This document shows positions 7,494-19,203 of a stretch of 19,203 nt of DNA, piece after piece. The stretch is from a virus, in the UHGV virus genome UHGV-0124605; one strand, written 5' to 3'. The first letter of the stretch is position 1, and each line of letters begins with the position of its first letter. The notes beneath the pieces were generated by a model that did no database searches, was not told the origin of the DNA, and saw only the letters and a list, made by a program, of their open reading frames with translations. A program made the position numbers and the translations under genes.

Positions 7494-7724
7494 ATGACAC
7501 ACATGATCTTTCGTCATGGCGACATGAAGAAGTGGAAAGGCGTTGGCTACGACTTTGAAATCGTGAAAGCCGAAGAGATTCAGGAATATCTGGATGCTGG
7601 TTGGTTTGCACATCCAGATGACCTTCTTAAGGATGTTGCAGAGCCAGAGCCAGAAGAAAAACAGCGTAAAAAGCCTGGTCGAAAACCTAAGGCGGCAGCA
7701 GATGAACCTGACAACGAAGGGTGA
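7494..7724 (+). CDS. Hypothetical small charged protein (76 aa) between coat and gp4
   Basis: ATG at 7494 preceded by GGAG (7484-7487). The C-terminus is highly charged ([26 protein letters not shown]). Overlaps the gp4 start by 23 nt in another frame. No homolog recognised. Confidence 0.45.
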
Positions 7725-8202
7725 TTTAGTTCTTGCGGCATTACGTAAGCTCGGTGTGGCATCAAATGCCACGTTAACAGATGTCGAACCGCAGTCTATG
7801 GAAGACGGCGTCAACGACCTTGAAATGATGATGGCTGAATGGCTTGGCGGTGATGCGTCACCTGGTATCAACGTTGGCTACATTTTTGCTGATGCAGATG
7901 TTGCTCCGGATCCGGGCGATGAGCACGGTTTATCAAATAACGCTATCAATGCCGTCATTTTCAACCTTGCCTGCCGCATTGCTCCAGATTATGCGCTGGA
8001 AGCGTCTGCAAAACTTATAACCACTGCCAGATACGGGAAAGAGCGACTCGTCAAACTGTCTGCAATGGACAGAGCAAAAGCCGCTAAATGTAAGTCCGGT
8101 TATCCAAACCGTATGCCTGTTGGTAGCGGTAACCAGTTGGCGAAGTGGAATGGTTGGAATTACTTCCACCGAAAGGAACCTTGCGATAACGGGAGCGAAT
8201 AA
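7702..8202 (+). CDS. 4: Head-tail adaptor / head completion protein (P22 gp4-like)
   Basis: 166 aa from the ATG at 7702, the same length as P22 gp4. [28 protein letters not shown]...DLE.MMAEW and [16 protein letters not shown] match from memory. The ORF-track upstream extension to 7594 is probably not translated. Confidence 0.9.
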
Positions 8203-9620
8203 TGCCGATTCAGCAACTTCCGCTTATGAAAGGTGTCGGCAAAGACTTCCGAAACGCCGACTATATCGACTATCTGCCAGTGAATATGTTGGCTACACCC
8301 AAAGAAATCCTTAACAGCAGCGGATATCTTCGCTCATTCCCGGGCATTGCCAAACGTTCTGATGTGAATGGTGTATCTCGAGGCGTCGAGTACAACATGG
8401 CGCAGAGTGCTGTTTATCGCGTGTGTGGTGGCAAGCTGTACAAAGGAGAAAGTGAAGTCGGTGACGTTGCCGGAAGTGGTCGCGTATCAATGGCGCATGG
8501 TCGGACATCACAGGCGGTAGGGGTTAACGGGAAACTGGTCGAGTATCGCTATGATGGCACGGTTAAAACCGTCTCAAACTGGCCTACAGACAGCGGATTC
8601 ACTCAGTATGAGTTAGGTTCAGTTCGCGACATTACGCGCTTGCGTGGGCGTTATGCGTGGTCAAAAGACGGTACTGATTCATGGTTCATCACTGACCTTG
8701 AAGACGAATCTCATCCTGACCGTTACAGCGCACAATATCGTGCCGAGTCTCAGCCTGACGGAATCATCGGCATCGGAACATGGCGAGACTTCATCGTCTG
8801 CTTTGGTTCATCGACGATTGAATATTTCTCCCTGACTGGTGCAACCACCGTTGGTGCTGCTTTGTATGTCGCACAGCCATCACTGATGGTGCAGAAAGGC
8901 ATTGCCGGGACTTACTGCAAAACGCCATTCGCTGATTCGTATGCGTTCATCAGCAATCCGGCAACAGGTGCGCCGTCTGTGTACATCATCGGTTCCGGTC
9001 AGGTATCACCAATCGCCAGCGCGAGCATTGAGAAAATACTACGCTCCTACACTGCTGATGAACTGGCTGATGGCGTGATGGAATCGTTGCGGTTTGATGC
9101 TCATGAGTTGCTGATTATCCACCTTCCGCGCCATGTTCTCGTGTACGACGCATCTTCAAGCGCTAATGGTCCGCAATGGTGTGTGCTGAAAACAGGCCTG
9201 TATGACGATGTGTACCGCGCTATCGACTTCATTTACGAAGGCAATCAGATAACGTGCGGAGATAAGCTGGAATCGGTTACCGGCAAATTGCAGTTCGATA
9301 TCAGCAGCCAGTACGACAAGCAGCAGGAACACCTGCTGTTTACTCCGTTGTTCAAAGCGGATAACGCCAGATGCTTCGATCTGGAGGTGGAATCATCCAC
9401 TGGCGTAGCTCAGTACGCCGATCGACTGTTCCTCTCTGCAACCACTGACGGAATCAATTACGGGCGTGAGCAGATGATTGAGCAGAATGAACCGTTCGTT
9501 TACGACAAACGCGTTTTGTGGAAGAAAGTAGGGCGCATCAGGAAAAACATTGGTTTCAAATTGCGCGTTATCACGAAGTCACCTGTAACTCTGTCTGGCT
9601 GCCAGATAAGGATTGAGTAA
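8202..9620 (+). CDS. 10: Tail accessory / packaged-DNA stabilization protein (P22 gp10-like)
   Basis: 472 aa, the same length as P22 gp10, in the syntenic position between gp4 and the tail needle. Start overlaps the gp4 stop (TAATG). Confidence 0.88.
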
Positions 9621-10573
9621 TGGCTGATTCGAATCTCAATGAGCCAGTAATCATCCAGGCTACGCGGCTCGATACATCAGTCCTTCCACGCAATATCTTC
9701 TCTCAGTCGTATCTGCTTTACGTTATTGCACAGGGTACTGATGTTGGTAATGTGGCTAACAAGGCCAACGAAGCAGGGAAGGGGGCTTATGATGCACAGG
9801 TGAAGAATGATGAGCAGGATGTCACCCTTGCAGACCATGAATCCAGAATTGCTGCTGCTGAAGCAACTCTCGTCAATCATGAACATAGAATCGCAGCAGC
9901 GGAAAGCACTCTTGCAGATCATGAAACAAGGATTACGGCTGCCGAAACAGAGCTGGCTGATCACGAGACGCGAATTGCTGCCAATGAATCTGAGTTAGCA
10001 AACCATGATGCGCGAATAACTCAGAATACAACCGATATCAACGCACTTGATACCAGGCTCACAGCGGCAGAGGGAAGTATTTCGACGCTACAAAGCACAG
10101 TTGGTGATCACTCAACAAGAATATCTGCGCTTGAGTATGCCACCACGCGCAAGAAATCAGAGGTTGTTTACTCAGGAGTATCGGTAACCATTCCAACAAC
10201 GCCGACCAACCTTGTTAGCCTGCTGAAAACGCTCACGCCGTCATCCGGGACGTTGGCACCATTCTTCGATACTGATAACAACAAGATGGTTGTGTTCAAC
10301 GAGAATAAAACGCTGTTCTTCAAGTTGTCTATTGTCGGGACGTGGCCCAGCGGAACCGCCAACAGATCAATGCAACTAACCTTTTCCGGCTCTGTTCCTG
10401 ACACACTTGTGAGCAGTCGTAATGCGGCGACAACAACCGATAACATCCTGTTAGCTACGTTCTTCAGCGTGGATAAAGACGGCTTTCTTGCCACAAATGG
10501 CAGTACGTTAACCATTCAGTCAAATGGTGCGGCGTTTACTGCCACAACCATCAAGATAATCGCGGAGCAGTAA
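9620..10573 (+). CDS. 26: Tail needle / cell-envelope-penetrating plug protein (P22 gp26-like) with extended coiled coil and distinct C-terminal domain
   Basis: N-terminus [43 protein letters not shown]... matches the gp26 N-terminal tail-hub-binding region from memory. It is followed by 14-residue tandem repeats and a non-P22 C-terminal region. 317 aa versus about 233 in P22. Confidence 0.9.
9827..10036 (+). repeat. In-frame tandem 42-bp (14-codon) repeats encoding the needle coiled coil
   Basis: Five clear units: [14 protein letters not shown] / [14 protein letters not shown] / [14 protein letters not shown] / [14 protein letters not shown] / [14 protein letters not shown]. Degenerate units continue to about 10140. 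Confidence 0.75.
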
Positions 10574-11028
10574 TGATTCAGTTCAAACCAACGCGAAACA
10601 TCGACCTGATCGAAGCAGTCGGAAATCACCATGACATTATTGCCGGAAGCAACAACGGTGATGGATACGACTACAAGCCTGAATGCCGTTACTTTGAAGT
10701 GAACGTGCACGGGCAGTTCGGCGGCATTGTTTACTATCATGAGATTCAGCCTCTGACATTCGATTGCCACGCCATGTACCTGCCAGAGGTTCGTGGATTC
10801 AGCAAGGAAATCGGGCTGGCGTTCTGGCGATACATTCTGACTAACACCACCGTTCAGTGCGTCACATCGTTCGCTGCACGCAAATTCCGCCACGGGCAGA
10901 TGTACTGCGCAATGATTGGCCTTAATCGTGTAGGAACCATCAAGAAATACTTCAAAGGCGTGGATGACGTGACGTTTTACAGCGCTACACGCGAAGAACT
11001 AATCGACTTCCTGAATCACGGGAGATAG
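10573..11028 (+). CDS. 14: Ejection/assembly-associated protein at the P22 gp14 position
   Basis: 151 aa ORF whose ATG overlaps the needle stop (TAATG), located between gene 26 and gene 7 as gp14 is in P22. Called by synteny only; I do not recall the P22 gp14 sequence. Confidence 0.65.
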   Translation: MIQFKPTRNIDLIEAVGNHHDIIAGSNNGDGYDYKPECRYFEVNVHGQFGGIVYYHEIQPLTFDCHAMYLPEVRGFSKEIGLAFWRYILTNTTVQCVTSFAARKFRHGQMYCAMIGLNRVGTIKKYFKGVDDVTFYSATREELIDFLNHGR

Positions 11029-11030
11029 CC

Positions 11031-11723
11031 ATGTTATATGCATTTAAGCTGGGCAGAAAACTGCGCGGCGAGGAACCTTATTGCCCTGAAAAAGGCGGGA
11101 AAGGTGGCAGTTCTGATAAAAGCGCAAAGTATGCAGCAGAAGCTCAGAAGTATGCCGCAGACCTGCAAAATCAGCAGTGGCAGACGATCATGAAAAACCT
11201 TGCTCCGTTCACGCCGCTTGCGGAGCAGTATGTTAACCAGCTTCAGAACCTTTCCAGTTTAGAAGGTCAGGGGCAGGCACTTAATCAGTATTACAACTCT
11301 CAGCAGTATAAAGACCTTGCAGGTCAGGCTCGTTACCAGAGTCTTGCTGCTGCGGAGGCAACGGGAGGACTTGGTTCGACAGCCACAAGCAATCAACTGG
11401 CTACGATCGCGCCGACTCTCGGTCAGTCTTGGTTATCAAACCAGATGAGCAACTACAACAATCTGGCAAACATTGGCCTTGGTGCGCTGCAAGGTCAGGC
11501 GAACGCCGGGCAGACATACGCCAACAACATGAGCAGCATTGCACAGCAAAGTGCTGCACTTGCCGCTGCTAATGCCAATAAACCATCAAGTCTTCAGACA
11601 GCAATTAGTGGCGGAACGTCTGGTGCGATTGCCGGTGCAGGTCTTGCCAGCCTTTTGGGAACATCAACACCTTGGGGCGCTGGCATTGGTGCTGGTATCG
11701 GATTGCTTGGCTCGTTGTTTTAA
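11031..11723 (+). CDS. 7: Ejection (E) protein gp7-like
   Basis: 230 aa (P22 gp7 is 229). MLYAF.LGRKLRGEEP.PEKGGKGGSSD.SAKYAAEAQKYAADLQNQQ and the Gly/Ala-rich C-terminus ...GLLGSLF match from memory. RBS GGGAGA upstream. Confidence 0.9.
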   Translation: MLYAFKLGRKLRGEEPYCPEKGGKGGSSDKSAKYAAEAQKYAADLQNQQWQTIMKNLAPFTPLAEQYVNQLQNLSSLEGQGQALNQYYNSQQYKDLAGQARYQSLAAAEATGGLGSTATSNQLATIAPTLGQSWLSNQMSNYNNLANIGLGALQGQANAGQTYANNMSSIAQQSAALAAANANKPSSLQTAISGGTSGAIAGAGLASLLGTSTPWGAGIGAGIGLLGSLF

Positions 11724-11732
11724 GGGGTAATC

Positions 11733-13028
11733 ATGGCTACTTGGCAAGGATCAAATGGCGGATTGTTGGCTGGTATCGGCGGCGTCAACTCAAACGCTCC
11801 GAGCGTAAATGACATCGGCAATACGCTTCAGCTTATCAGGCAGAACAATGATATTGAGCGTTCAGGCGCTAACAATGTTGGGCTGACTGCTTTGCAAGGC
11901 CTTTCAGGTATTGCGGGGGTGTTTCAGCTGGAAAAGCAGGCTCAGCGGCAGAAAGAATTTCAGCAGGCGTACGCTAATGCTTATGCGTCTGGTGATCGCG
12001 GTGCTTTGCGTCAGTTGGCTACTCAATATCCAGACCAGATTGAATCCGTTCGTAAAGGCATGGGATTCATTGATGAAGACCAGCGGAATTCTATCGGCAC
12101 CTTAGCGGCTGGCGCACGCCTTGCGTCATCGTCTCCAGAAGCAATGCAATCATGGCTGCAAAACAACGCCAAGGAACTGACTCGCGTCGGTGTTGACCCT
12201 AACAGCGTTGCTCAGATGTATCAGCAGAATCCTTCAGGATTTGGTGAGTTTGTTGATCACCTTGGAATGGCTGCTCTTGGCCCGATTGACTACTTCAATG
12301 TTCAGGACAAGATGGCTGGTCGTGAAATTGACCGAGGCAGGCTGGCAGAGACAATCCGCAGCAATCAGGCTGGAGAAGCACTAACAGCGCGTGGTCAGGA
12401 CATCCAGATACGTGGACAGAACATCAGCGCACAGAATGCTGCTCTTTCCCGCGAAATACAAAGAGCAGAATTACAAGAAAAGGCTCTGGACAGACAGATA
12501 GCCAGAGAAAGCAATCAGTTAAAGCTTGAAGAGCTAAAACAGAAACAGGCAGATGTTCGGCAAAAGGCTGACATAGCCCGCGCTGACAGGCAGGCCGCCG
12601 CTCAGGGTGCAGTTGATACGTTCAGCACCGCGCTTGATTCTCTCAACGAGATAGAGCAAAGCCCCGGCCTTTCAAAAGCAGTAGGAATTCGCTCAGCGTT
12701 TCCGACAGTTCCTGGCTCTGATGCGGCTAACTTTGAAGCAAGGCTCGACACCTTTAAAGCTCAAACATTCCTTCCTATGGTGCAGTCCCTGAAGGGTATG
12801 GGCGCTCTTTCAGATGCTGAGGGTAAAAAATTATCCGATGCGGTTGGTGCCCTAAGCCCCAAAATGAGTGAAAAGGCTTTTCGTGACTCTATCGGAAAGA
12901 TTAGAAATCAGCTTGAAAGCAAGTTGAGCACTGTTAAAAAACAGTTTGATTATCAGGAGCCAGTACAGAATATGCCAGGGCAACAATCTACTACTGGCAG
13001 TAACTTTTCTTCACTATGGGGTGATTAA
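11733..13028 (+). CDS. 20: Ejection (E) protein gp20-like
   Basis: 431 aa in the syntenic position after gp7, with low-complexity Gln/Ala-rich and coiled-coil content typical of P22-like internal ejection proteins. Stop overlaps the next start. Confidence 0.8.
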   Translation: MATWQGSNGGLLAGIGGVNSNAPSVNDIGNTLQLIRQNNDIERSGANNVGLTALQGLSGIAGVFQLEKQAQRQKEFQQAYANAYASGDRGALRQLATQYPDQIESVRKGMGFIDEDQRNSIGTLAAGARLASSSPEAMQSWLQNNAKELTRVGVDPNSVAQMYQQNPSGFGEFVDHLGMAALGPIDYFNVQDKMAGREIDRGRLAETIRSNQAGEALTARGQDIQIRGQNISAQNAALSREIQRAELQEKALDRQIARESNQLKLEELKQKQADVRQKADIARADRQAAAQGAVDTFSTALDSLNEIEQSPGLSKAVGIRSAFPTVPGSDAANFEARLDTFKAQTFLPMVQSLKGMGALSDAEGKKLSDAVGALSPKMSEKAFRDSIGKIRNQLESKLSTVKKQFDYQEPVQNMPGQQSTTGSNFSSLWGD

Positions 13029-15025
13029 TGGCTAAAGCATGGAAAGATGTTATCGCCTCTCCACAGTATCAGGCGTTAGCACCAGAACAAAAAGCGCAGG
13101 CTCAGGAGCAATACTTCAATGAAGTCGTGGCCCCGCAAGCCGGAGAAAATGCAGAGCAGGCTAAGCAAGCTTTCTATGCTGCCTATCCATTGCCATCTGT
13201 GCAGCCAGTGGAGACACAACAACCAGTAGCACAGCAACAACCACAGCAAAGTGGATTTATGTCTGATCTTGGTGAAGCAGTAAAAGAGACTGGTCGCGGA
13301 CTGGTGCAGGCTGGCGTGAACGTGGCAAACATACCTGCATCAGTTGCCGATGCTGTAACAAGCGCGGCGGCTTGGGCTGGCGGTAAACTCGGTATTGGCG
13401 ATGGTACATATCAACCAGCACCACGAGTAACAACGCAGGGATTAGAGCAGGACTTTGGCCTTCAGCAAGGTGCGCTGACTCCACAAACGACAGAGGGAAG
13501 GGTATTTGCTGAAGCATTGCCTTACCTCACTCCTGCTGGCGTTGAGAGAGCGGCGGTACAGGCACCAACACTTGCTGGTCGAATTGCTCAGGGGGCAACT
13601 CGCCTTCTAGCAGAAAACGCAGTTGGATCACTTGCTGCAAATAGTGCGAAAGATGATGCGGAAGCACTCGCCACCGATTTAGGCGTTGGTGTACTTGCTG
13701 GCGGTGCTATTAACGCTGCCGGACGTGGATTAGGTGCTGCTTATCGTGGCGTTCGTGGTGCTATCGCGCCAGAAGCGCAGCAGGCTATCAGATTTGCAGA
13801 GCGTGAAGGAGTTCCTCTGCACACCACAGACCTGTTACAACCAACTTCCCGCGTCGGAAAAATGGCGCAGACTACAGCAGAAAATATCCCTCTGGCTGGC
13901 ACAAGCGGAATGAGAGCAACGCAACAGGAAGCTAGAAGCCAGTTGGTGCAGAGATTTGCTGATAAATTCGGTGAGTATGATCCAGCGGTTGTTATTGACA
14001 GCCTTAAAGCGAAAACATCAGGAATTCGTCGTGCTGCAGGGAATCGTCTTGAGCAGGTTCAGAATGCAATGGCGGGAGTCAATATCCAGCCTGCGCGAGC
14101 AATTCAGCAGATTGATACTGAGATATCTAATCTGCAGAAGCTTGGTAAGGTAGCTGATAACGAGACAATTTCAAAACTTCAGTCATATCGTGATGAGCTT
14201 GTTCGCAATGCTGGTCCTGATGGTCCGGTAAATCTGGATTTGAAGCAATTAAGCGACCTGCGCAGCCAGTTCAGAATGGACGTGAAGGGTGAGCGACCAG
14301 TGTTACCAAACCGTTCCGATGCTGCCATTCAGCGCGTTTACAAGGCAATGACTGACGATATCAATGGTGCCATTGGTCAGAATCTTGGCAACGATACTCT
14401 CCGTAAATATCAGCAGGCCAATGCCGTCTACGCTGACGAAGCGGCGAAACTAAAGAATACCAGGCTGAAGAATGTTCTCATGAAAGGCGACCTGACGCCG
14501 GAAGTCGTCAACAACATGCTATTCAGCAAGAACAAATCGGAAATTAAGACGCTGTATAACTCAGTTGGTCGTGTTGGCAGGGCGCAAATGCGCAATGGCA
14601 TCATTGGAAAGGCGATGGAGAAATCTGGCGGATCCCCTGACCAGTTCCTTCGGCAGCTTAACATCCTGCAAAACCAGACTGGCATCACATTTAAGGGGCA
14701 GGACGCTGCTTATCTGAAAGGATTAAAAAACTACCTGCAATCCACGCAGCAGGCTGCAAAAGCGGCAGTAACAACACCCACAGGGCAGCAAACTATCCCG
14801 TTCATTATTGGGTATGGGACGGCAATGAACCCGGCGACAACTGGCGCAGCAGTAAGCTACGGACTTCTTACTCGCGCCTATGAGAGCGAGCCATTCAGAA
14901 ATGCAATGCTCCGAATGGCAAACACCCCACGCGGATCAACAGCGTTTGAGAAAGCCATGCAGCAGGCACAAAAGGCAATTAACGCTATGACGCAGGGGGC
15001 TAAGTCTGATGCGTTGTCAGAATAG
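13028..15025 (+). CDS. 16: Ejection (E) protein gp16-like
   Basis: 665 aa in the syntenic position, the last gene of the late structural block before the accessory region. Ala/Gly/Gln-rich as in gp16-type proteins. Confidence 0.8.
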   Translation: MAKAWKDVIASPQYQALAPEQKAQAQEQYFNEVVAPQAGENAEQAKQAFYAAYPLPSVQPVETQQPVAQQQPQQSGFMSDLGEAVKETGRGLVQAGVNVANIPASVADAVTSAAAWAGGKLGIGDGTYQPAPRVTTQGLEQDFGLQQGALTPQTTEGRVFAEALPYLTPAGVERAAVQAPTLAGRIAQGATRLLAENAVGSLAANSAKDDAEALATDLGVGVLAGGAINAAGRGLGAAYRGVRGAIAPEAQQAIRFAEREGVPLHTTDLLQPTSRVGKMAQTTAENIPLAGTSGMRATQQEARSQLVQRFADKFGEYDPAVVIDSLKAKTSGIRRAAGNRLEQVQNAMAGVNIQPARAIQQIDTEISNLQKLGKVADNETISKLQSYRDELVRNAGPDGPVNLDLKQLSDLRSQFRMDVKGERPVLPNRSDAAIQRVYKAMTDDINGAIGQNLGNDTLRKYQQANAVYADEAAKLKNTRLKNVLMKGDLTPEVVNNMLFSKNKSEIKTLYNSVGRVGRAQMRNGIIGKAMEKSGGSPDQFLRQLNILQNQTGITFKGQDAAYLKGLKNYLQSTQQAAKAAVTTPTGQQTIPFIIGYGTAMNPATTGAAVSYGLLTRAYESEPFRNAMLRMANTPRGSTAFEKAMQQAQKAINAMTQGAKSDALSE

Positions 15026-15115: not shown

Positions 15116-15601
15116 TTATCTGATGTTACTGCTACTGTTGCATGTGACTGTATTTCCAAACCCTGAATTGCAGTTTGTGTAAGTGTCAACTCGTGTTGGA
15201 TAGGGTTGAGTTATAACAGGCTGTCTCGCTTTTTGCTCGATCGCTTGCATTGTGTTTACAGCCTGATAATTCAATAAAGCCTGCTGGAATGCTTGGCTTT
15301 GCGCTATTTGTTGGGCTTGTTCTTGGCTTTGTAGTTGAACATAAAGATTCTGAAGCTCAAGTCTTGCCTGCGCGTCACTTATCTTGCCATCATCGACACC
15401 TTGCCCGAGCATCTTCGCAGCAAGGACATATAACTTAGGTGTTGGTGCTGATGCCATGCGTGAGTCGTTCTTCACGCTAGCATCAAGGCAATTAGCCATA
15501 TCGCTAAGCTTTGGATAGCGTTGTTCGCAATTTGCCTGATAGTCGCTAACCTTTGCACACCCTGCCAGCAGAAGCGGGATAATTAACAGTGATTTTTTCA
15601 T
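15116..15601 (-). CDS. Predicted lipoprotein (161 aa), function unknown; candidate superinfection-exclusion or lysogenic-conversion protein
   Basis: On the - strand, strong RBS AAGGAGAG 7 nt upstream of the ATG at 15601-15599. Signal peptide MKKSLLIIPLLLAGC with lipobox LAG|C. Mature part has two Cys pairs and a Gln-rich helical segment. The ORF-track start at 15631 would place the RBS inside the coding sequence, so I prefer 15601. Confidence 0.7.
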   Translation of the reverse strand: MKKSLLIIPLLLAGCAKVSDYQANCEQRYPKLSDMANCLDASVKNDSRMASAPTPKLYVLAAKMLGQGVDDGKISDAQARLELQNLYVQLQSQEQAQQIAQSQAFQQALLNYQAVNTMQAIEQKARQPVITQPYPTRVDTYTNCNSGFGNTVTCNSSSNIR

Positions 15602-15735
15602 ATGATTAACTCTCCTTATCTTTGCCATCATGGCACTGTTGGGTGTAAATGAGTTATTAACTCAATCGACAATATCTTCACGAAAATACTTTTTATTATT
15701 AAGATCTTTCTGATTCTAACAAAACGTAAAGTAAT

Positions 15736-16155
15736 ATGAAGAGGATTATCGGCGTCGTTGCTGGCGCTATATTGTTATCTGGGTGCGCAACTATTGTTGG
15801 TGACGAAACACAGCTTGTGCAAGTGAACAGCAATCCTTCCGGCGCGAGCTTTAAGGTAAAAGACGAATCAGGCGTGATTGTTGCGCAAGGTAAGACCCCG
15901 CAAGGAGTAACTCTTGCCAAGTCAGATGGTAGTTATTTTGGCAAAAAGAGCTACCAGATCACTATGGAGAAGGATGGGTACGAACCAGTTACCCTGCCAA
16001 TCAAAGCCAATGCTAATGGTTGGTATATTGGTGGAAACCTTGTGTTTGGTGGGTTAATTGGTTGGCTTGCTGTAGATCCATTTAATGGCGGGATGTATAC
16101 CTTGAAGCCTAAAGAGGCAAATGCATCCCTTATACCGTCCACAAAGCAAGACTAG
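15736..16155 (+). CDS. Predicted lipoprotein (139 aa) with PEGA-like beta domain and Gly-rich hydrophobic C-terminal segment, function unknown
   Basis: Signal peptide MKRIIGVVAGAILLSGC with lipobox LSG|C. NSNPSGASFKV...GKTPQGVTL...GYEPV resembles a PEGA-type domain. C-terminal WYIGGNLVFGGLIGWLAVDPFNGGMY is glycine-zipper-like. Followed by a terminator hairpin. Confidence 0.7.
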   Translation: MKRIIGVVAGAILLSGCATIVGDETQLVQVNSNPSGASFKVKDESGVIVAQGKTPQGVTLAKSDGSYFGKKSYQITMEKDGYEPVTLPIKANANGWYIGGNLVFGGLIGWLAVDPFNGGMYTLKPKEANASLIPSTKQD

Positions 16156-16557: not shown

Positions 16558-19203
16558 ATGACAGACATTACAGCCAATGTTGTAGTGAGCATGCCTTCGC
16601 AACTCTTTACTATGGCCCGCTCTTTTAAAGCCGTAGCTAATGGCAAAATTTATATCGGTAAAATTGACACTGACCCAGTAAATCCTGAAAACCAGATTCA
16701 GGTTTATGTGGAGAATGAAGACGGTTCTCACGTTCCTGTTTCGCAACCTATAATCATTAACGCTGCTGGATATCCGGTATATAACGGACAGATTGCCAAG
16801 TTCGTAACTGTGCAAGGCCATTCTATGGCTGTTTATGATGCGTATGGTGCACAGCAGTTCTATTTTCCTAATGTGCTGAAGTATGACCCGGATCAGTTTA
16901 AACAAAAAGTATTATCAAATGATATGCTAAATATGTCTCCTCTTTATTTTGGAGCTAAGGGGGATGGGATTAGCGATGATACTGAAGCATTTGTCGCGTT
17001 GGAAATGGATATAAAAAATAGGGTTATTGATTTAAGTGGAAGAGCATTTTTTGTTACTAAAAGTTTTATTGAAAATAGCTATATAAATGGTTCTTTTATT
17101 CGTGATGGCAGTAAACGAATTGCGATTGGTGATCTTAAATTAAGAGATAAAAGAGAGCCATTGATATTTTCCGGAATGCCAAAAGTATATAACACCAGAC
17201 ACACGTTGCGCAGAACTGAAGGTGCGGGTGGTTTATATGCGGTCATTCAGGGGTGTTGTTATGATGAAATTAACGACAAGATTTTTACTTTATCATCTAC
17301 CACAGCATACGGTTATTGCATTAATGCCTTTGACGTGACGAATTCTGGTGAACTAGGAAGATACGACAGAACCCGTTCTACTGAACTTGGGCATCAGGGG
17401 CTTGGATTGCATCATAATCCTGATGGTACTGTCGTGCTGTGGACATCGAAGCCTTATGGAACCGATGCCGCCAATCAATGTATTTCGATGGAAAATATAT
17501 TGAGTTACACAGGGACAACCAACGGAGTATCTGAAGGTTTTATCACCTGGAAGTTGTTCCCCTATGATGGAATGAGCGCAAGCTCTACTCCAACTGTATC
17601 AAGTTGTGAAAACTATCTCCTTGCCAAGAAAATTTCATCGGATGGAATTACCTGCACGGTTCGTGTTTTCGACATAGTCAGCATGTGGAATAACAGAGCT
17701 CATAAAACTGATTATAGTGATGATTATTTAGTTGAGTTTAGCTATCAAAAACCATCACAAGAAGCATTTACCCAATCAATTGCTTGCGATGGGGCATACA
17801 TTTACATACTTGAGTCACATACGTATGTTGGCATGACTAATTATATTTACGTATTTGACTTAACAGGCAGGTTTATTGAGCGAGTAGATATTTCAACTGT
17901 TGGTGATGATGAAGCAAAATCTGACAGTACAGGAACTCCTGTTTATAAAGAGCCTGAGTCCCTAACAGTAATTAGAACGGAGAGTGGGTATGTTTTAACG
18001 CTGGGGATATGCACATATAAAGGAGTTGCTGAGAACGGGAAAAATGTATATCTGTTTGATATAGGCAGGTCTGGTTCGGTAGTGCAAAGCAAAGCAAGCC
18101 GTTCTGTATCCAGTAATACTGGTCTTCATAGTTCTGGCTCCCCGGAGTTCAAATATGGAGTAAGGGAGTACAATGATACTTTTCACTGGACAGTTTGGCC
18201 AACAAGAAAGGGTATTCAAACTAACCGGGATAACCCTATATTGTTTCTTGATGGCGGAATTACTGGTGGAATGCAGTTAGCTTCAAACGGCACGGAAGGG
18301 ATGAGCAACTCATGGGTTTCCCGGCATCAGTCAGACACCGCAGAAGGACCAAGAGCAATAATGTATAAGTCTCGCTCTGGTGTTGTATCAACTGATAATT
18401 TTGGAGCTCTGCAGACAGGGGATGTATTGGGTACTCATGTATGGGCCGGTGATACAGGTAGCAAGGCTGTGCAATGCGCACGCATTAAATGCGTCACAAG
18501 AGGTAATCCTTCCGGAGACAATATCCCGGTTGCTTTCTACTTTGGAACCATGGGTGAGAGTGACGGCTTGCGTGACAGATGGGTATTAACAGAATTAGGT
18601 CATTTTCGACCATCAGGTTCAAATATTTATGATATTGGTACACAGTCGAATACTGTCAGAAACCTGTATATAAATAATAGCCCCATTGTAACCAGCGACA
18701 GAAATCACAAGCAGGATGAAGCTTCATTATCTGATGCAGAACTACGGGTTGGAATGGCTATTTACCCGCTGATAAAAAAATTCAGAATGAAGGATGCTGT
18801 AAAAGAAAAAGGCTTGTCAGCGCGTGAGCATATCGGTGTAATTGCGCAAGATATACAATCCATCTTTGAATCTGAGGGGCTTGATGCATTTTCTTATGGG
18901 GTTCTTTGCTATGAAGAGTGGGATGATGAGTATGAGAAAGTCTATGCAACAAGAAATGTGACCAGAAAAATTTTAATTGATGAAGAGTCTGGTCAGTATG
19001 ATGAAATCACAGAGGAAGAAGAGTATGAAACTGGTGAAGTAAGGTTAATTATGGAATCAGGAAGAAAATTATCAGTGCGCTATGACGAGTTAATGTTTCT
19101 GGCAATGAGCGCACTATATCATCACCATGAGCAGGATATTGCCAATATCACATCAAAGATTAATAATCTGGAAAAATTATTAAAGTTAACACTAAATGGT
19201 TGA
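16558..19203 (+). CDS. 9: Tailspike protein, mosaic: P22 gp9-type head-binding domain, uncharacterised central receptor-binding/depolymerase-like domain, endosialidase-type C-terminal intramolecular chaperone (peptidase S74-like)
   Basis: 881 aa. Residues 1-113 match the P22 tailspike head-binding domain from memory ([11 protein letters not shown]...[33 protein letters not shown]...QGHSMA.YDA.G.Q....NVLKYDPDQ). The centre begins with a [13 protein letters not shown] motif. The C-terminus ([11 protein letters not shown]...HIGVIAQDI...[10 protein letters not shown]...) resembles the K1F endosialidase chaperone domain. TGA stop is at the window end. Confidence 0.93.

Follow-up and report, generated by a model that had tools for sequence, protein, structure and literature searches.

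The gene at positions 9620-10573 (+ strand) of the stretch of viral DNA analyzed here (UHGV virus genome UHGV-0124605, 19,203 nucleotides, hereafter the window) almost certainly codes for a tail needle of the Sf6 type, HS1 subtype, belonging to a temperate P22-like prophage of E. coli. It is a genuine ORF, running from ATG to TAA and encoding 317 aa plus the stop codon, and its product aligned without gaps to the needle of the HS1 prophage (EcHS_A0316 / WP_000785558.1), with 305 of the 317 residues identical (96%) and 97% identity between the two genes at the DNA level. Leavitt et al. (2013, PMC3741392) described the HS1 needle as composed of a P22/Sf6-type plug, a 16-heptad shaft, and an Sf6-type knob (PDB 4K6B); the whole architecture of the window needle, including its longer shaft, is already published for HS1. 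Because of its 96% identity to a needle described in 2013, the protein is an ordinary one, of a type already known from structural and genetic work. A modest addition is that needles from 254 to 345 aa occur naturally as a clean length series, whose DNA junctions show in-register duplication and deletion.

Gene identity and genomic context

The assignment is also supported by database matches. The phrog_1030 family, annotated as 'tail needle knob', matched the protein at 2.5e-135, and exactly the same protein is present in NCBI under the name 'tail needle knob protein'. This is also the name given by PGAP to the gene in E. coli, where 848 of 5,426 complete genomes have a match. The original prediction of a tail needle that begins like gp26 and continues in an extended coiled coil of 14-residue units agreed with the Pfam, PDB, and HS1 matches, and its estimate of about 85 aa of additional length relative to P22 gp26 was borne out by a difference of 84 aa (317 versus 233 aa in chain 2poh_A).

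The HS1 and window needles share the 317-aa length, the 16 heptads, the knob ligands, and the gene neighborhood, and fall into a common 90%-identity protein cluster. Relative to HS1, the window needle carries 12 substitutions, three of which (A194T, V219D, and S269A) lie in the knob proper (codons 174-317). The HS1 prophage differs in its tailspike, which has 636 aa instead of the 881 aa found in the window.

The gene is embedded in a textbook P22-like virion module, and the window carries little weight beyond its correct annotation. Upstream lies the gp10-type tail hub gene ('packaged DNA stabilization protein', 8202..9620, +; PF11134, E=9.8e-301), whose stop codon overlaps the needle start codon in the sequence TAATG (9618-9622). 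A second TAATG (10571-10575) joins the needle stop codon to the ATG of the downstream gene, which encodes a DUF2824 protein and occupies the place of gene 14 in P22 (10573..11028, +; PF11039, E=4.8e-52; phrog_651, 2e-76). It is followed by the ejection (DNA transfer) proteins (11031..15025, +; PF25688 and PF16928; phrog_770 'DNA transfer protein', 3.3e-239), namely those related to gp7 (11031-11723, +), gp20 (11733-13028, +), and gp16 (13028-15025, +). According to Pfam and PHROG matches, the resulting order gp4-gp10-needle-DUF2824-gp7-gp20-gp16, with the tailspike further on, is that of the HS1 prophage. Three antisense ORFs (- strand; 9677-9964, 10168-10515, and 10516-10893) were set aside as by-products of mechanical ORF calling, since the sense gene that contains them is strongly conserved.

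Plug, shaft, and knob

The N-terminal virion-binding (plug) domain comprises residues 1-69 (9620..9826, +) and was delimited by identity to P22 gp26, PDB alignments, and the match to phrog_1219 'tail needle protein'. With 56 of 69 residues identical to P22 gp26, this region is indeed the gp26-like hub-binding segment that had been proposed. The structures 2poh, 3c9i, and 8eap cover residues 1-138 (E ~1e-41), and alignment of the P22 gp26 chains with the window needle stops at about residue 138-139. PDB 5bu5, a 233-aa chain that we take to be the HK620 needle, also matches the N-terminal part and is nearly identical to the window needle over residues 1-79. The plug domain contains the polar core motif NxxQD (N63, Q66, and D67; nt 9806-9820), which in gp26 coordinates Ca2+ (PMC13580157). 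P22 gp26 (233 aa; 2POH and 3C9I) thus shares with the window needle a homologous plug with NxxQD, the same role, and the same gene position, and even carries two copies of the LxxHExRI motif described below, whereas it differs in its unrelated C-terminal tip and its 11-heptad shaft.

The plug is followed by five in-frame units of 42 nt, or 14 residues (aa 70-139; 9827..10036, +), the first starting exactly at nt 9827 (L70) and the fifth ending at 10036. Each unit corresponds to two heptads, in which the a position is Leu or Ile and the d position is in turn His and either Ala or Asn; the Glu and Arg that follow the His fall at e and g. The periodicity is far from random: DNA identity at a lag of 42 nt was 0.607 against 0.309 +/- 0.035 in 10,000 codon shuffles, none of which reached the observed value (z=8.6), and protein identity at a lag of 14 residues was 0.625 against 0.109 (z=12.9). 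The original prediction of at least five near-perfect 42-bp repeats in this segment was therefore right about the in-frame units and their exact coordinates. The description as near-perfect was dropped, since Tandem Repeats Finder, run over the window, called no array within the needle gene. Among units 1-4, identity is 48-74% in DNA and 57-79% in protein, while unit 5 shares with them 43-57% of the DNA and 36-50% of the protein; a repeat search placed the units at 61-74% identity to the reference copy. Moreover, the longest exact in-register DNA match between units is 10 nt, and the same codon is used in only 23 of 58 pairs of identical residues. The repeat is an old heptad/14-mer pattern preserved at the protein level (LxxHExRIxAAExx) and not a recent DNA repeat. 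Its residues H73, H87, H101, H115, and H129 and R76, R90, R104, R118, and R132 are invariant among 24 homologues that are 72-98% identical.

The distal shaft heptads (aa 140-172; 10037..10135, +), recognized by their a positions and in an AlphaFold2 monomer, are more diverged and include a sixth, degenerate version of the motif, VGDHSTRI. With N63 as the starting point, the shaft comprises 16 heptads with the aliphatic a positions NLILILILILIILIVI, and the register runs from N63 to I168 without a stutter. In the AlphaFold2 model, which is that of a monomer with residues 1-41 poorly predicted (pLDDT below 50), residues 42-175 form one continuous helix, and pLDDT reaches about 90 or higher across residues ~55-170. 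The HS1 shaft has the same 16 heptads, whereas those of Sf6 and P22 have 11 (Leavitt et al. 2013, PMC3741392). The ~84 additional residues relative to P22 gp26 are accounted for by five more heptads than in Sf6 or P22 and by a knob that is larger than the P22 tip.

The C-terminal knob (aa 173-317; 10136..10570, +) is of the Sf6/HS1 type, as revealed by PF16532 (E=6.7e-106; 351.9 bits against a cut-off of 27), by the HS1 knob structure 4K6B (149 of 153 residues identical, 97%), and by the Sf6 knob structure 3RWN (E=9e-88). The solved knob homologues are TNF-like jellyrolls (Leavitt et al. 2013, PMC3741392), and in the AlphaFold2 monomer the helix is followed by a beta-strand domain at residues 179-316. 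All the glutamate- and phosphate-binding residues listed by Leavitt et al. (2013, PMC3741392) are kept, which in HS1 numbering are E181, K235, S283, D285, L290, and K312, together with S266-R267-N268. The alignment of the N-terminal 138 residues with P22 gp26 structures might suggest an ordinary gp26-type needle whose tip, homologous to gp26 residues 141-233, had diverged beyond recognition. Such an origin has practically no probability left: the PF16532 match and the 149 identities to the HS1 knob refute a gp26-type tip, none of the gp26 chains aligns past about residue 139, and Leavitt et al. (2013, PMC3741392) state that the two kinds of tip have no relationship to each other. The C-terminus is a knob of the Sf6/HS1 type, as stated above, and the expectation that the last ~150 residues, from about nt 10150, would not match the P22 tip was confirmed, the sequence being non-P22 from about residue 173 (nt 10136).

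The knob had also been compared with those of Sf6/HK620-type needles, which holds for Sf6 and is wrong for HK620, because the HK620 tip is P22-type and typifies its subtype A, with no knob (Leavitt et al. 2013, PMC3741392). In agreement with this, the DNA of the HK620 needle (233 aa) matches the window's needle gene only over nt 1-200 of that gene, where identity is 91.5%, and carries a P22-type tip in place of the window's knob. Sf6 gp9 (282 aa; knob PDB 3RWN), on the other hand, is likewise built of three parts and ends in a nearly identical knob, and its N-terminal and knob DNA is ~90% identical to that of the window. It is 35 aa (105 nt) shorter since it contains 11 heptads instead of 16, and the sequence of its shaft has diverged from that of the window, as have the HS1 and Sf6 shafts from each other (67% identity; Leavitt et al., PMC3741392).

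Needle function and host range

On the basis of homology to P22 gp26, Sf6 gp9, and HS1, three needle chains would assemble into one long parallel coiled coil, whose N-terminal ~60 residues would be seated in the channel of the gp10 hub, plugging it and retaining the packaged DNA. The 16-heptad shaft, made mostly of the 14-residue unit, would project past the tailspikes, and the C-terminal 145 residues would form a trimeric jellyroll knob with three L-glutamates bound at the subunit interfaces. During infection, release of the needle would open the channel, letting the ejection proteins and the DNA through, and the knob would probably sway the speed of DNA delivery and not the choice of host. 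Where it concerns assembly into trimers, channel plugging, needle release, and the influence on delivery rate, this scheme draws on homologues and on published work, namely the cryo-EM study of the Sf6 tail (PMC9728967) and Leavitt et al. (2013, PMC3741392); the homotrimer at the tail tip, its plugging, and its release on infection were established by experiments on P22, Sf6, and HS1 (PMC3741392, PMC9728967).

The suggestion that the needle tip is relevant to host range runs against the published knob swaps, in which the delivery rate was altered and specificity was not (PMC3741392). P22 carrying the HS1 or Sf6 knob infected Salmonella normally, and what the knob changed was the time course of K+ release, which serves as a proxy for DNA delivery, and not host specificity (PMC3741392). 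A receptor-binding role for the knob, setting or narrowing the natural host range in E. coli/Shigella, for example through an outer-membrane protein, is accordingly improbable in our judgment. It would be in line with the position of the needle tip, which Leavitt et al. (PMC3741392) place so as to meet the outer membrane first, and with the TNF-like fold, also found in the receptor-binding fiber knobs of adenovirus and PRD1 (PMC3741392). Leavitt et al. explicitly left open a specific role in the infection of Shigella by Sf6 (PMC3741392), and the secondary receptors of Sf6 are OmpA or OmpC, the virion partner of which is not named (PMC9728967). Nevertheless, P22 infects Salmonella when its needle ends in the knob of Sf6 or HS1, or even in a foldon tip, and mutations in the glutamate site had no visible effect (PMC3741392). 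Knob sequences are nearly invariant, with at most 4.9% divergence over 69 phages (PMC3741392), unlike what is expected of a receptor binder engaged in an arms race, and the expansion of Sf6 host range is reported to map to the tailspike (PMC9400499).

Moreover, one and the same needle is combined with many tailspikes. Among IMG/VR loci, tailspikes accompanying the 317-aa needle measured ~527-1281 aa, and those accompanying the 282-aa needle 605-734 aa, with a few of the tailspike ORFs clipped at locus ends; the 636-aa tailspike of HS1 and the 881-aa tailspike of the window likewise go with needles of 317 aa. A match of needle length to tailspike length or type was thus rejected: the 317- and 282-aa needles each pair with varied tailspikes, so needle length is not coupled to the receptor-binding protein.

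Needle length among relatives

The comparison of repeat copy number across relatives revealed that it is not invariant, since needle length differs between them, from 254 to 345 aa. The best 120 homologues fall mainly into 12 length classes (254, 268, 282, 289, 296, 303, 310, 317, 324, 331, 338, and 345 aa) that differ by multiples of 7, most steps being of 7 or 14 aa, and 282 and 317 aa are the dominant lengths. Needle relatives have a constant N-terminus (69 aa) and C-terminus (145 aa) enclosing a rod whose length varies between 40 and 131 aa, or by roughly 13 nm, and the gp10-needle-DUF2824-gp7 context is intact in all length variants. At the DNA level, the indel junctions are clean, in register, and located at homologies of 7-15 nt. 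For example, the 345-aa form contains a perfect 84-nt tandem duplication, and the 289-aa form shows the reciprocal 84-nt deletion, with the crossover within CTTGCAGAYCATGAA; the 303- and 331-aa forms carry a 42-nt deletion at CGCGAAT, and the 268-aa form a 147-nt deletion at TGATCAC.

Changes of length nonetheless appear to be rare among the closest matches. When complete E. coli genomes were queried with the full gene and the matches were read row by row, 59 of the best 60 carried the 317-aa length (a form of 952-954 nt) and one carried the 303-aa form. All of the 73 closest IMG/VR loci among those fetched encoded 317 aa, and relatives with 72-80% identity, some of them named from Klebsiella and Serratia, still had needles of 316-318 aa. 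Counts from 80-nt junction queries for the 303-, 345-, 289-, and 268-aa forms in complete E. coli genomes do not separate the length variants, as they join half-matches of 317-aa genes over spans of 122, 164, and 227 nt.

These observations bear on the proposal that the repeats are recombination-prone and could vary needle length, which stands as far as the whole-heptad and 14-mer differences are concerned and is weakened by the apparent rarity of the changes. In its strongest version, the 42-nt units would be a recombination hot spot acting as a contingency-like switch that rapidly tunes host range between isolates through needle length. The 12 length classes in multiples of 7, the constant termini flanking a variable rod, the in-register duplication and deletions, and the intact gene context of every variant all speak for it. 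We nevertheless consider such a switch quite unlikely, because the units share only 43-74% of their DNA with exact in-register matches of up to 10 nt, and neither Tandem Repeats Finder nor the pairwise identities revealed near-identical DNA units fit for frequent slippage or unequal crossover. Furthermore, the 317-aa form prevails among the best complete-genome matches, the closest IMG/VR loci fetched, and the more distant relatives, the same needle length occurs with widely differing tailspikes, and knob swaps left host specificity unaltered (PMC3741392).

It could also be envisaged that the length of the needle shaft is a quantized and evolvable trait, although we regard this only as a tentative and rather unlikely reading. 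Blocks of 7, 14, 28, or 49 residues may be gained or lost by in-register recombination within the LxxHExRI units, of which the variants and junctions described above are the observed part. As a conjecture, particular lengths might be selected for their reach past the tailspikes, and thereby for the timing of DNA delivery on differing host surfaces. The natural length series could serve as an allelic series for relating shaft length to DNA-delivery kinetics.

Finally, the variants indicate that whole-heptad indels are tolerated by the coiled-coil fiber in nature, as they are in engineered gp26. PDB 4LIN (300 aa), presumably an engineered elongated P22 gp26 fiber, is an artificial construct with a P22 tip that aligns with residues 1-184 of the window needle, and in it the addition of in-register coiled-coil repeats resulted in a longer needle fiber.

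Identity of the needle gene and its genomic setting

The open reading frame at 9620-10573 (+) was confirmed, with a product of 317 aa, and proved to be an already known gene for a tail needle of the HS1 type with an Sf6 knob, carried by a P22-like prophage of E. coli. The C-terminus of its product matched the Pfam family PF16532 (Sf6-type phage tail needle knob, E=6.7e-106), and residues 165-317 were identical at 149 of 153 positions to the crystallised knob (PDB 4K6B) of HS1, the prophage of E. coli HS, the Sf6 knob (3RWN) being nearly as close. The needle gene of HS1, taken from the E. coli HS chromosome, also measures 954 nt and shares 97% DNA identity with that of the window; the two products align gap-free with 305 of 317 residues identical and belong to one 90%-identity cluster of 1,430 members. 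The exact protein has an NCBI entry named 'tail needle knob protein', which is also the PGAP name in the complete E. coli genomes where the gene was matched (848 of 5,426), the closest match being that of strain E400634 (99.9% identity). These matches bear out the original prediction of a tail needle as essentially correct. Its gp26-like N-terminus was also verified (56 of the first 69 residues identical to P22 gp26), as were the extra length (84 aa more than the 233 aa of gp26) and the non-P22 C-terminus, the P22 tip having no relation to the window protein beyond about residue 173. The proposal of an HK620-type knob was a misassignment, since HK620 is the type member of subtype A of the P22-type tip (PMC3741392), and its DNA match was limited to the first 200 nt of the needle gene. 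Among the homologous proteins, P0061 (394 aa, Shigella sonnei) joins PF11650 (gp4 tail accessory factor) and the needle knob in one product and is probably a fused or mis-called ORF, and P0125, a cluster member of 317 aa, bears the JGI name 'predicted nucleic acid-binding Zn-ribbon protein', a misannotation.

The window is the half of a P22-like prophage that is devoted to virion assembly. Its genes, as identified with Pfam and PHROG, stand in the order Rha-family regulator, terminase (small and large), portal, scaffold, coat, gp4, gp10, needle, DUF2824, gp7, gp20, gp16, two small genes without known function and tailspike, which is identical to that of HS1. The needle gene has a one-base TAATG overlap with its neighbour at each end. 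In some relatives, a 546-nt homing-endonuclease-type gene with a NUMOD4 domain (or HNH endonuclease) lies between gp10 and the needle, such as in E. coli strain T2 (NZ_CP114792.1; fetched locus L088:2463-3008) and likewise in genome matches H49, H50, H138 and H156; the gp10-needle boundary of the window is without this insert, because the two genes overlap. The gp4 frame (7594-8202, +) encodes 202 aa from its first ATG, the P22_Tail-4 match begins only at residue 38, and the HS1 annotation has a gp4 of 153 aa with a separate 62-aa hypothetical gene ahead, so that the true gp4 start in the window is probably internal. Between gp16 and the tailspike, the genes at 15116-15631 (-) and 15736-16155 (+) had no Pfam match and matched only PHROGs of unknown function (phrog_6067 and phrog_6823). 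P22 carries the accessory genes sieA and immI at that position, by analogy with which the two genes may have an accessory (moron) function or serve superinfection exclusion.

Shaft and knob

Leavitt et al. (2013; PMC3741392) reported that the N-terminal virion-binding domain and the knob of the HS1 needle are 98% and 99% identical to those of Sf6, respectively, and that its coiled-coil shaft, of a predicted 210 Å, has 16 heptads versus 11 in Sf6 and P22. In the window protein, the a positions counted from N63 (NLILILILILIILIVI) likewise gave 16 heptads, with QHAHAHAHNHNLALHL at the d positions. The residues N63-x-x-Q66-D67 form the NxxQD core motif, described as calcium-binding in gp26 (PMC13580157). 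In an AlphaFold2 model of the monomer, whose mean pLDDT was 80, residues 42-175 were predicted to form a single uninterrupted helix and residues 179-316 a beta domain; at 1.5 Å per residue the helix would extend about 200 Å, in agreement with the published estimate. The HS1 knob is a trimeric TNF-like jellyroll with three bound L-glutamates (PMC3741392), and all its ligands for glutamate (E181, K235, S283, D285, L290 and K312) and phosphate (S266 and N268) are kept in the window protein under identical numbering.

Repeats and needle length

Five 14-residue units start at L70, in the exact register of 9827-10036, and their periodicity is beyond chance: lag-42 DNA identity was 0.607 versus 0.309 +/- 0.035 in 10,000 codon shuffles (z=8.6), and lag-14 protein identity was 0.625 versus 0.109 (z=12.9). 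The His at d and the Arg at g of these units were invariant in 24 homologues 72-98% identical. The at least five 42-bp repeats originally predicted therefore exist, but they are not near-perfect. DNA identity was 48-74% among units 1-4 and only 43-57% for unit 5, the longest exact in-register match was 10 nt, the same codon was used in only 23 of 58 identical-residue pairs, and Tandem Repeats Finder reported no repeat within the needle gene. Consequently, the repeat is an old pattern kept at the protein level and not a recent DNA repeat.

Repeat number was not invariant across relatives. Among the best 120 of 2,464 homologues, the main lengths were 254, 268, 282, 289, 296, 303, 310, 317, 324, 331, 338 and 345 aa, in steps that are multiples of seven, with a few lengths outside the series (e.g., 285, 298 and 316 aa). 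The first 69 and last 145 residues were constant, and the rod between them ranged from 40 to 131 residues. In the DNA of six length variants, the gp10-needle-DUF2824-gp7 context was intact in all six, and the junctions were clean and in register. Relative to the 317-aa form, the 345-aa variant has units 1-2 (84 nt) perfectly duplicated in tandem, and the 289-aa variant has the reciprocal 84-nt deletion, with the crossover inside CTTGCAGAYCATGAA. Similarly, the 303-aa variant has a 42-nt deletion (junction CGCGAAT), which the 331-aa variant shares in addition to an 84-nt duplication with one mismatch, and the 268-aa variant has a 147-nt deletion (junction TGATCAC). Repeat-driven length variation was thus correctly foreseen, but the likely instability of the repeats was overstated, as such events are infrequent: when complete genomes were matched to the 303-aa gene, 59 of the best 60 hits had the 952-954-nt (317-aa) form and one the 303-aa form, and all 73 of the closest fetched IMG/VR loci encoded 317 aa. 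A length of 316-318 aa was retained even in relatives of 72-80% identity, among them some recorded under Klebsiella aerogenes and Serratia. Coiled-coil length differences among natural needles had entered the literature by 2009 at the latest, as indicated by the title of a paper by Bhardwaj and colleagues (J Mol Biol 391:227). The series of natural lengths and its junctions add to this in a small, tidy way and do not amount to a discovery.

Function, tailspike and distribution

By analogy with its homologues, the N-terminus of the needle trimer would plug the gp10 hub channel and retain the DNA, the shaft would reach past the tailspikes, and release at infection would open the channel for gp7, gp20, gp16 and DNA. 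The host-range relevance attributed to the tip was not supported, because P22 chimeras still infected Salmonella with the knob of HS1 or Sf6 in place, and even with a foldon tip; mutations at the glutamate site had no visible effect, and K+ release with the HS1 knob was slowed to 40-70% of the wild-type rate (PMC3741392). The authors of that work considered a tip role in host specificity unlikely and concluded that the tip affects delivery kinetics. The knob may have a specific role on its native host.

A shaft length matched to the tailspike was also considered and rejected, since one needle length goes with many tailspike lengths: the 317-aa needle was paired with more than 25 different ones, from about 527 to 1281 aa, the 282-aa needle with tailspikes of 605-734 aa, and HS1 has a tailspike of 636 aa versus 881 aa in the window, with needles of equal length. 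The window tailspike (16558-19203, +), whose stop codon is exactly the window end, is unusually long and has three parts. Its head-binding domain (aa 1-113) is of P22 type, aa 1-415 match phrog_8280, annotated as 'tail spike protein with colanic acid degradation activity', and aa 713-774 form a C-terminal intramolecular-chaperone domain (Peptidase_S74) similar to the corresponding domains of PDB 6eu4 and of 3gw6, an endosialidase chaperone. Alignments with P22 and Sf6 tailspike chains from the PDB were confined to the head-binding domain (aa 1-120).

In 2013 the reported carriers of the Sf6-type knob were limited to P22-like phages of Escherichia and Shigella (PMC3741392); here, needles with this knob, 316-318 aa long and 73-78% identical, were recorded under Klebsiella aerogenes, Serratia marcescens and Serratia fonticola (P0062, P0068-P0070 and P0088). 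Moreover, in many genomes, especially of O157:H7 (matches H59-H85), only the knob half was matched (query nt 507-952), with 'tail needle knob protein' as sole annotation, which fits the small P22 remnants with a needle homologue described in more than 100 E. coli genomes (PMC3741392).
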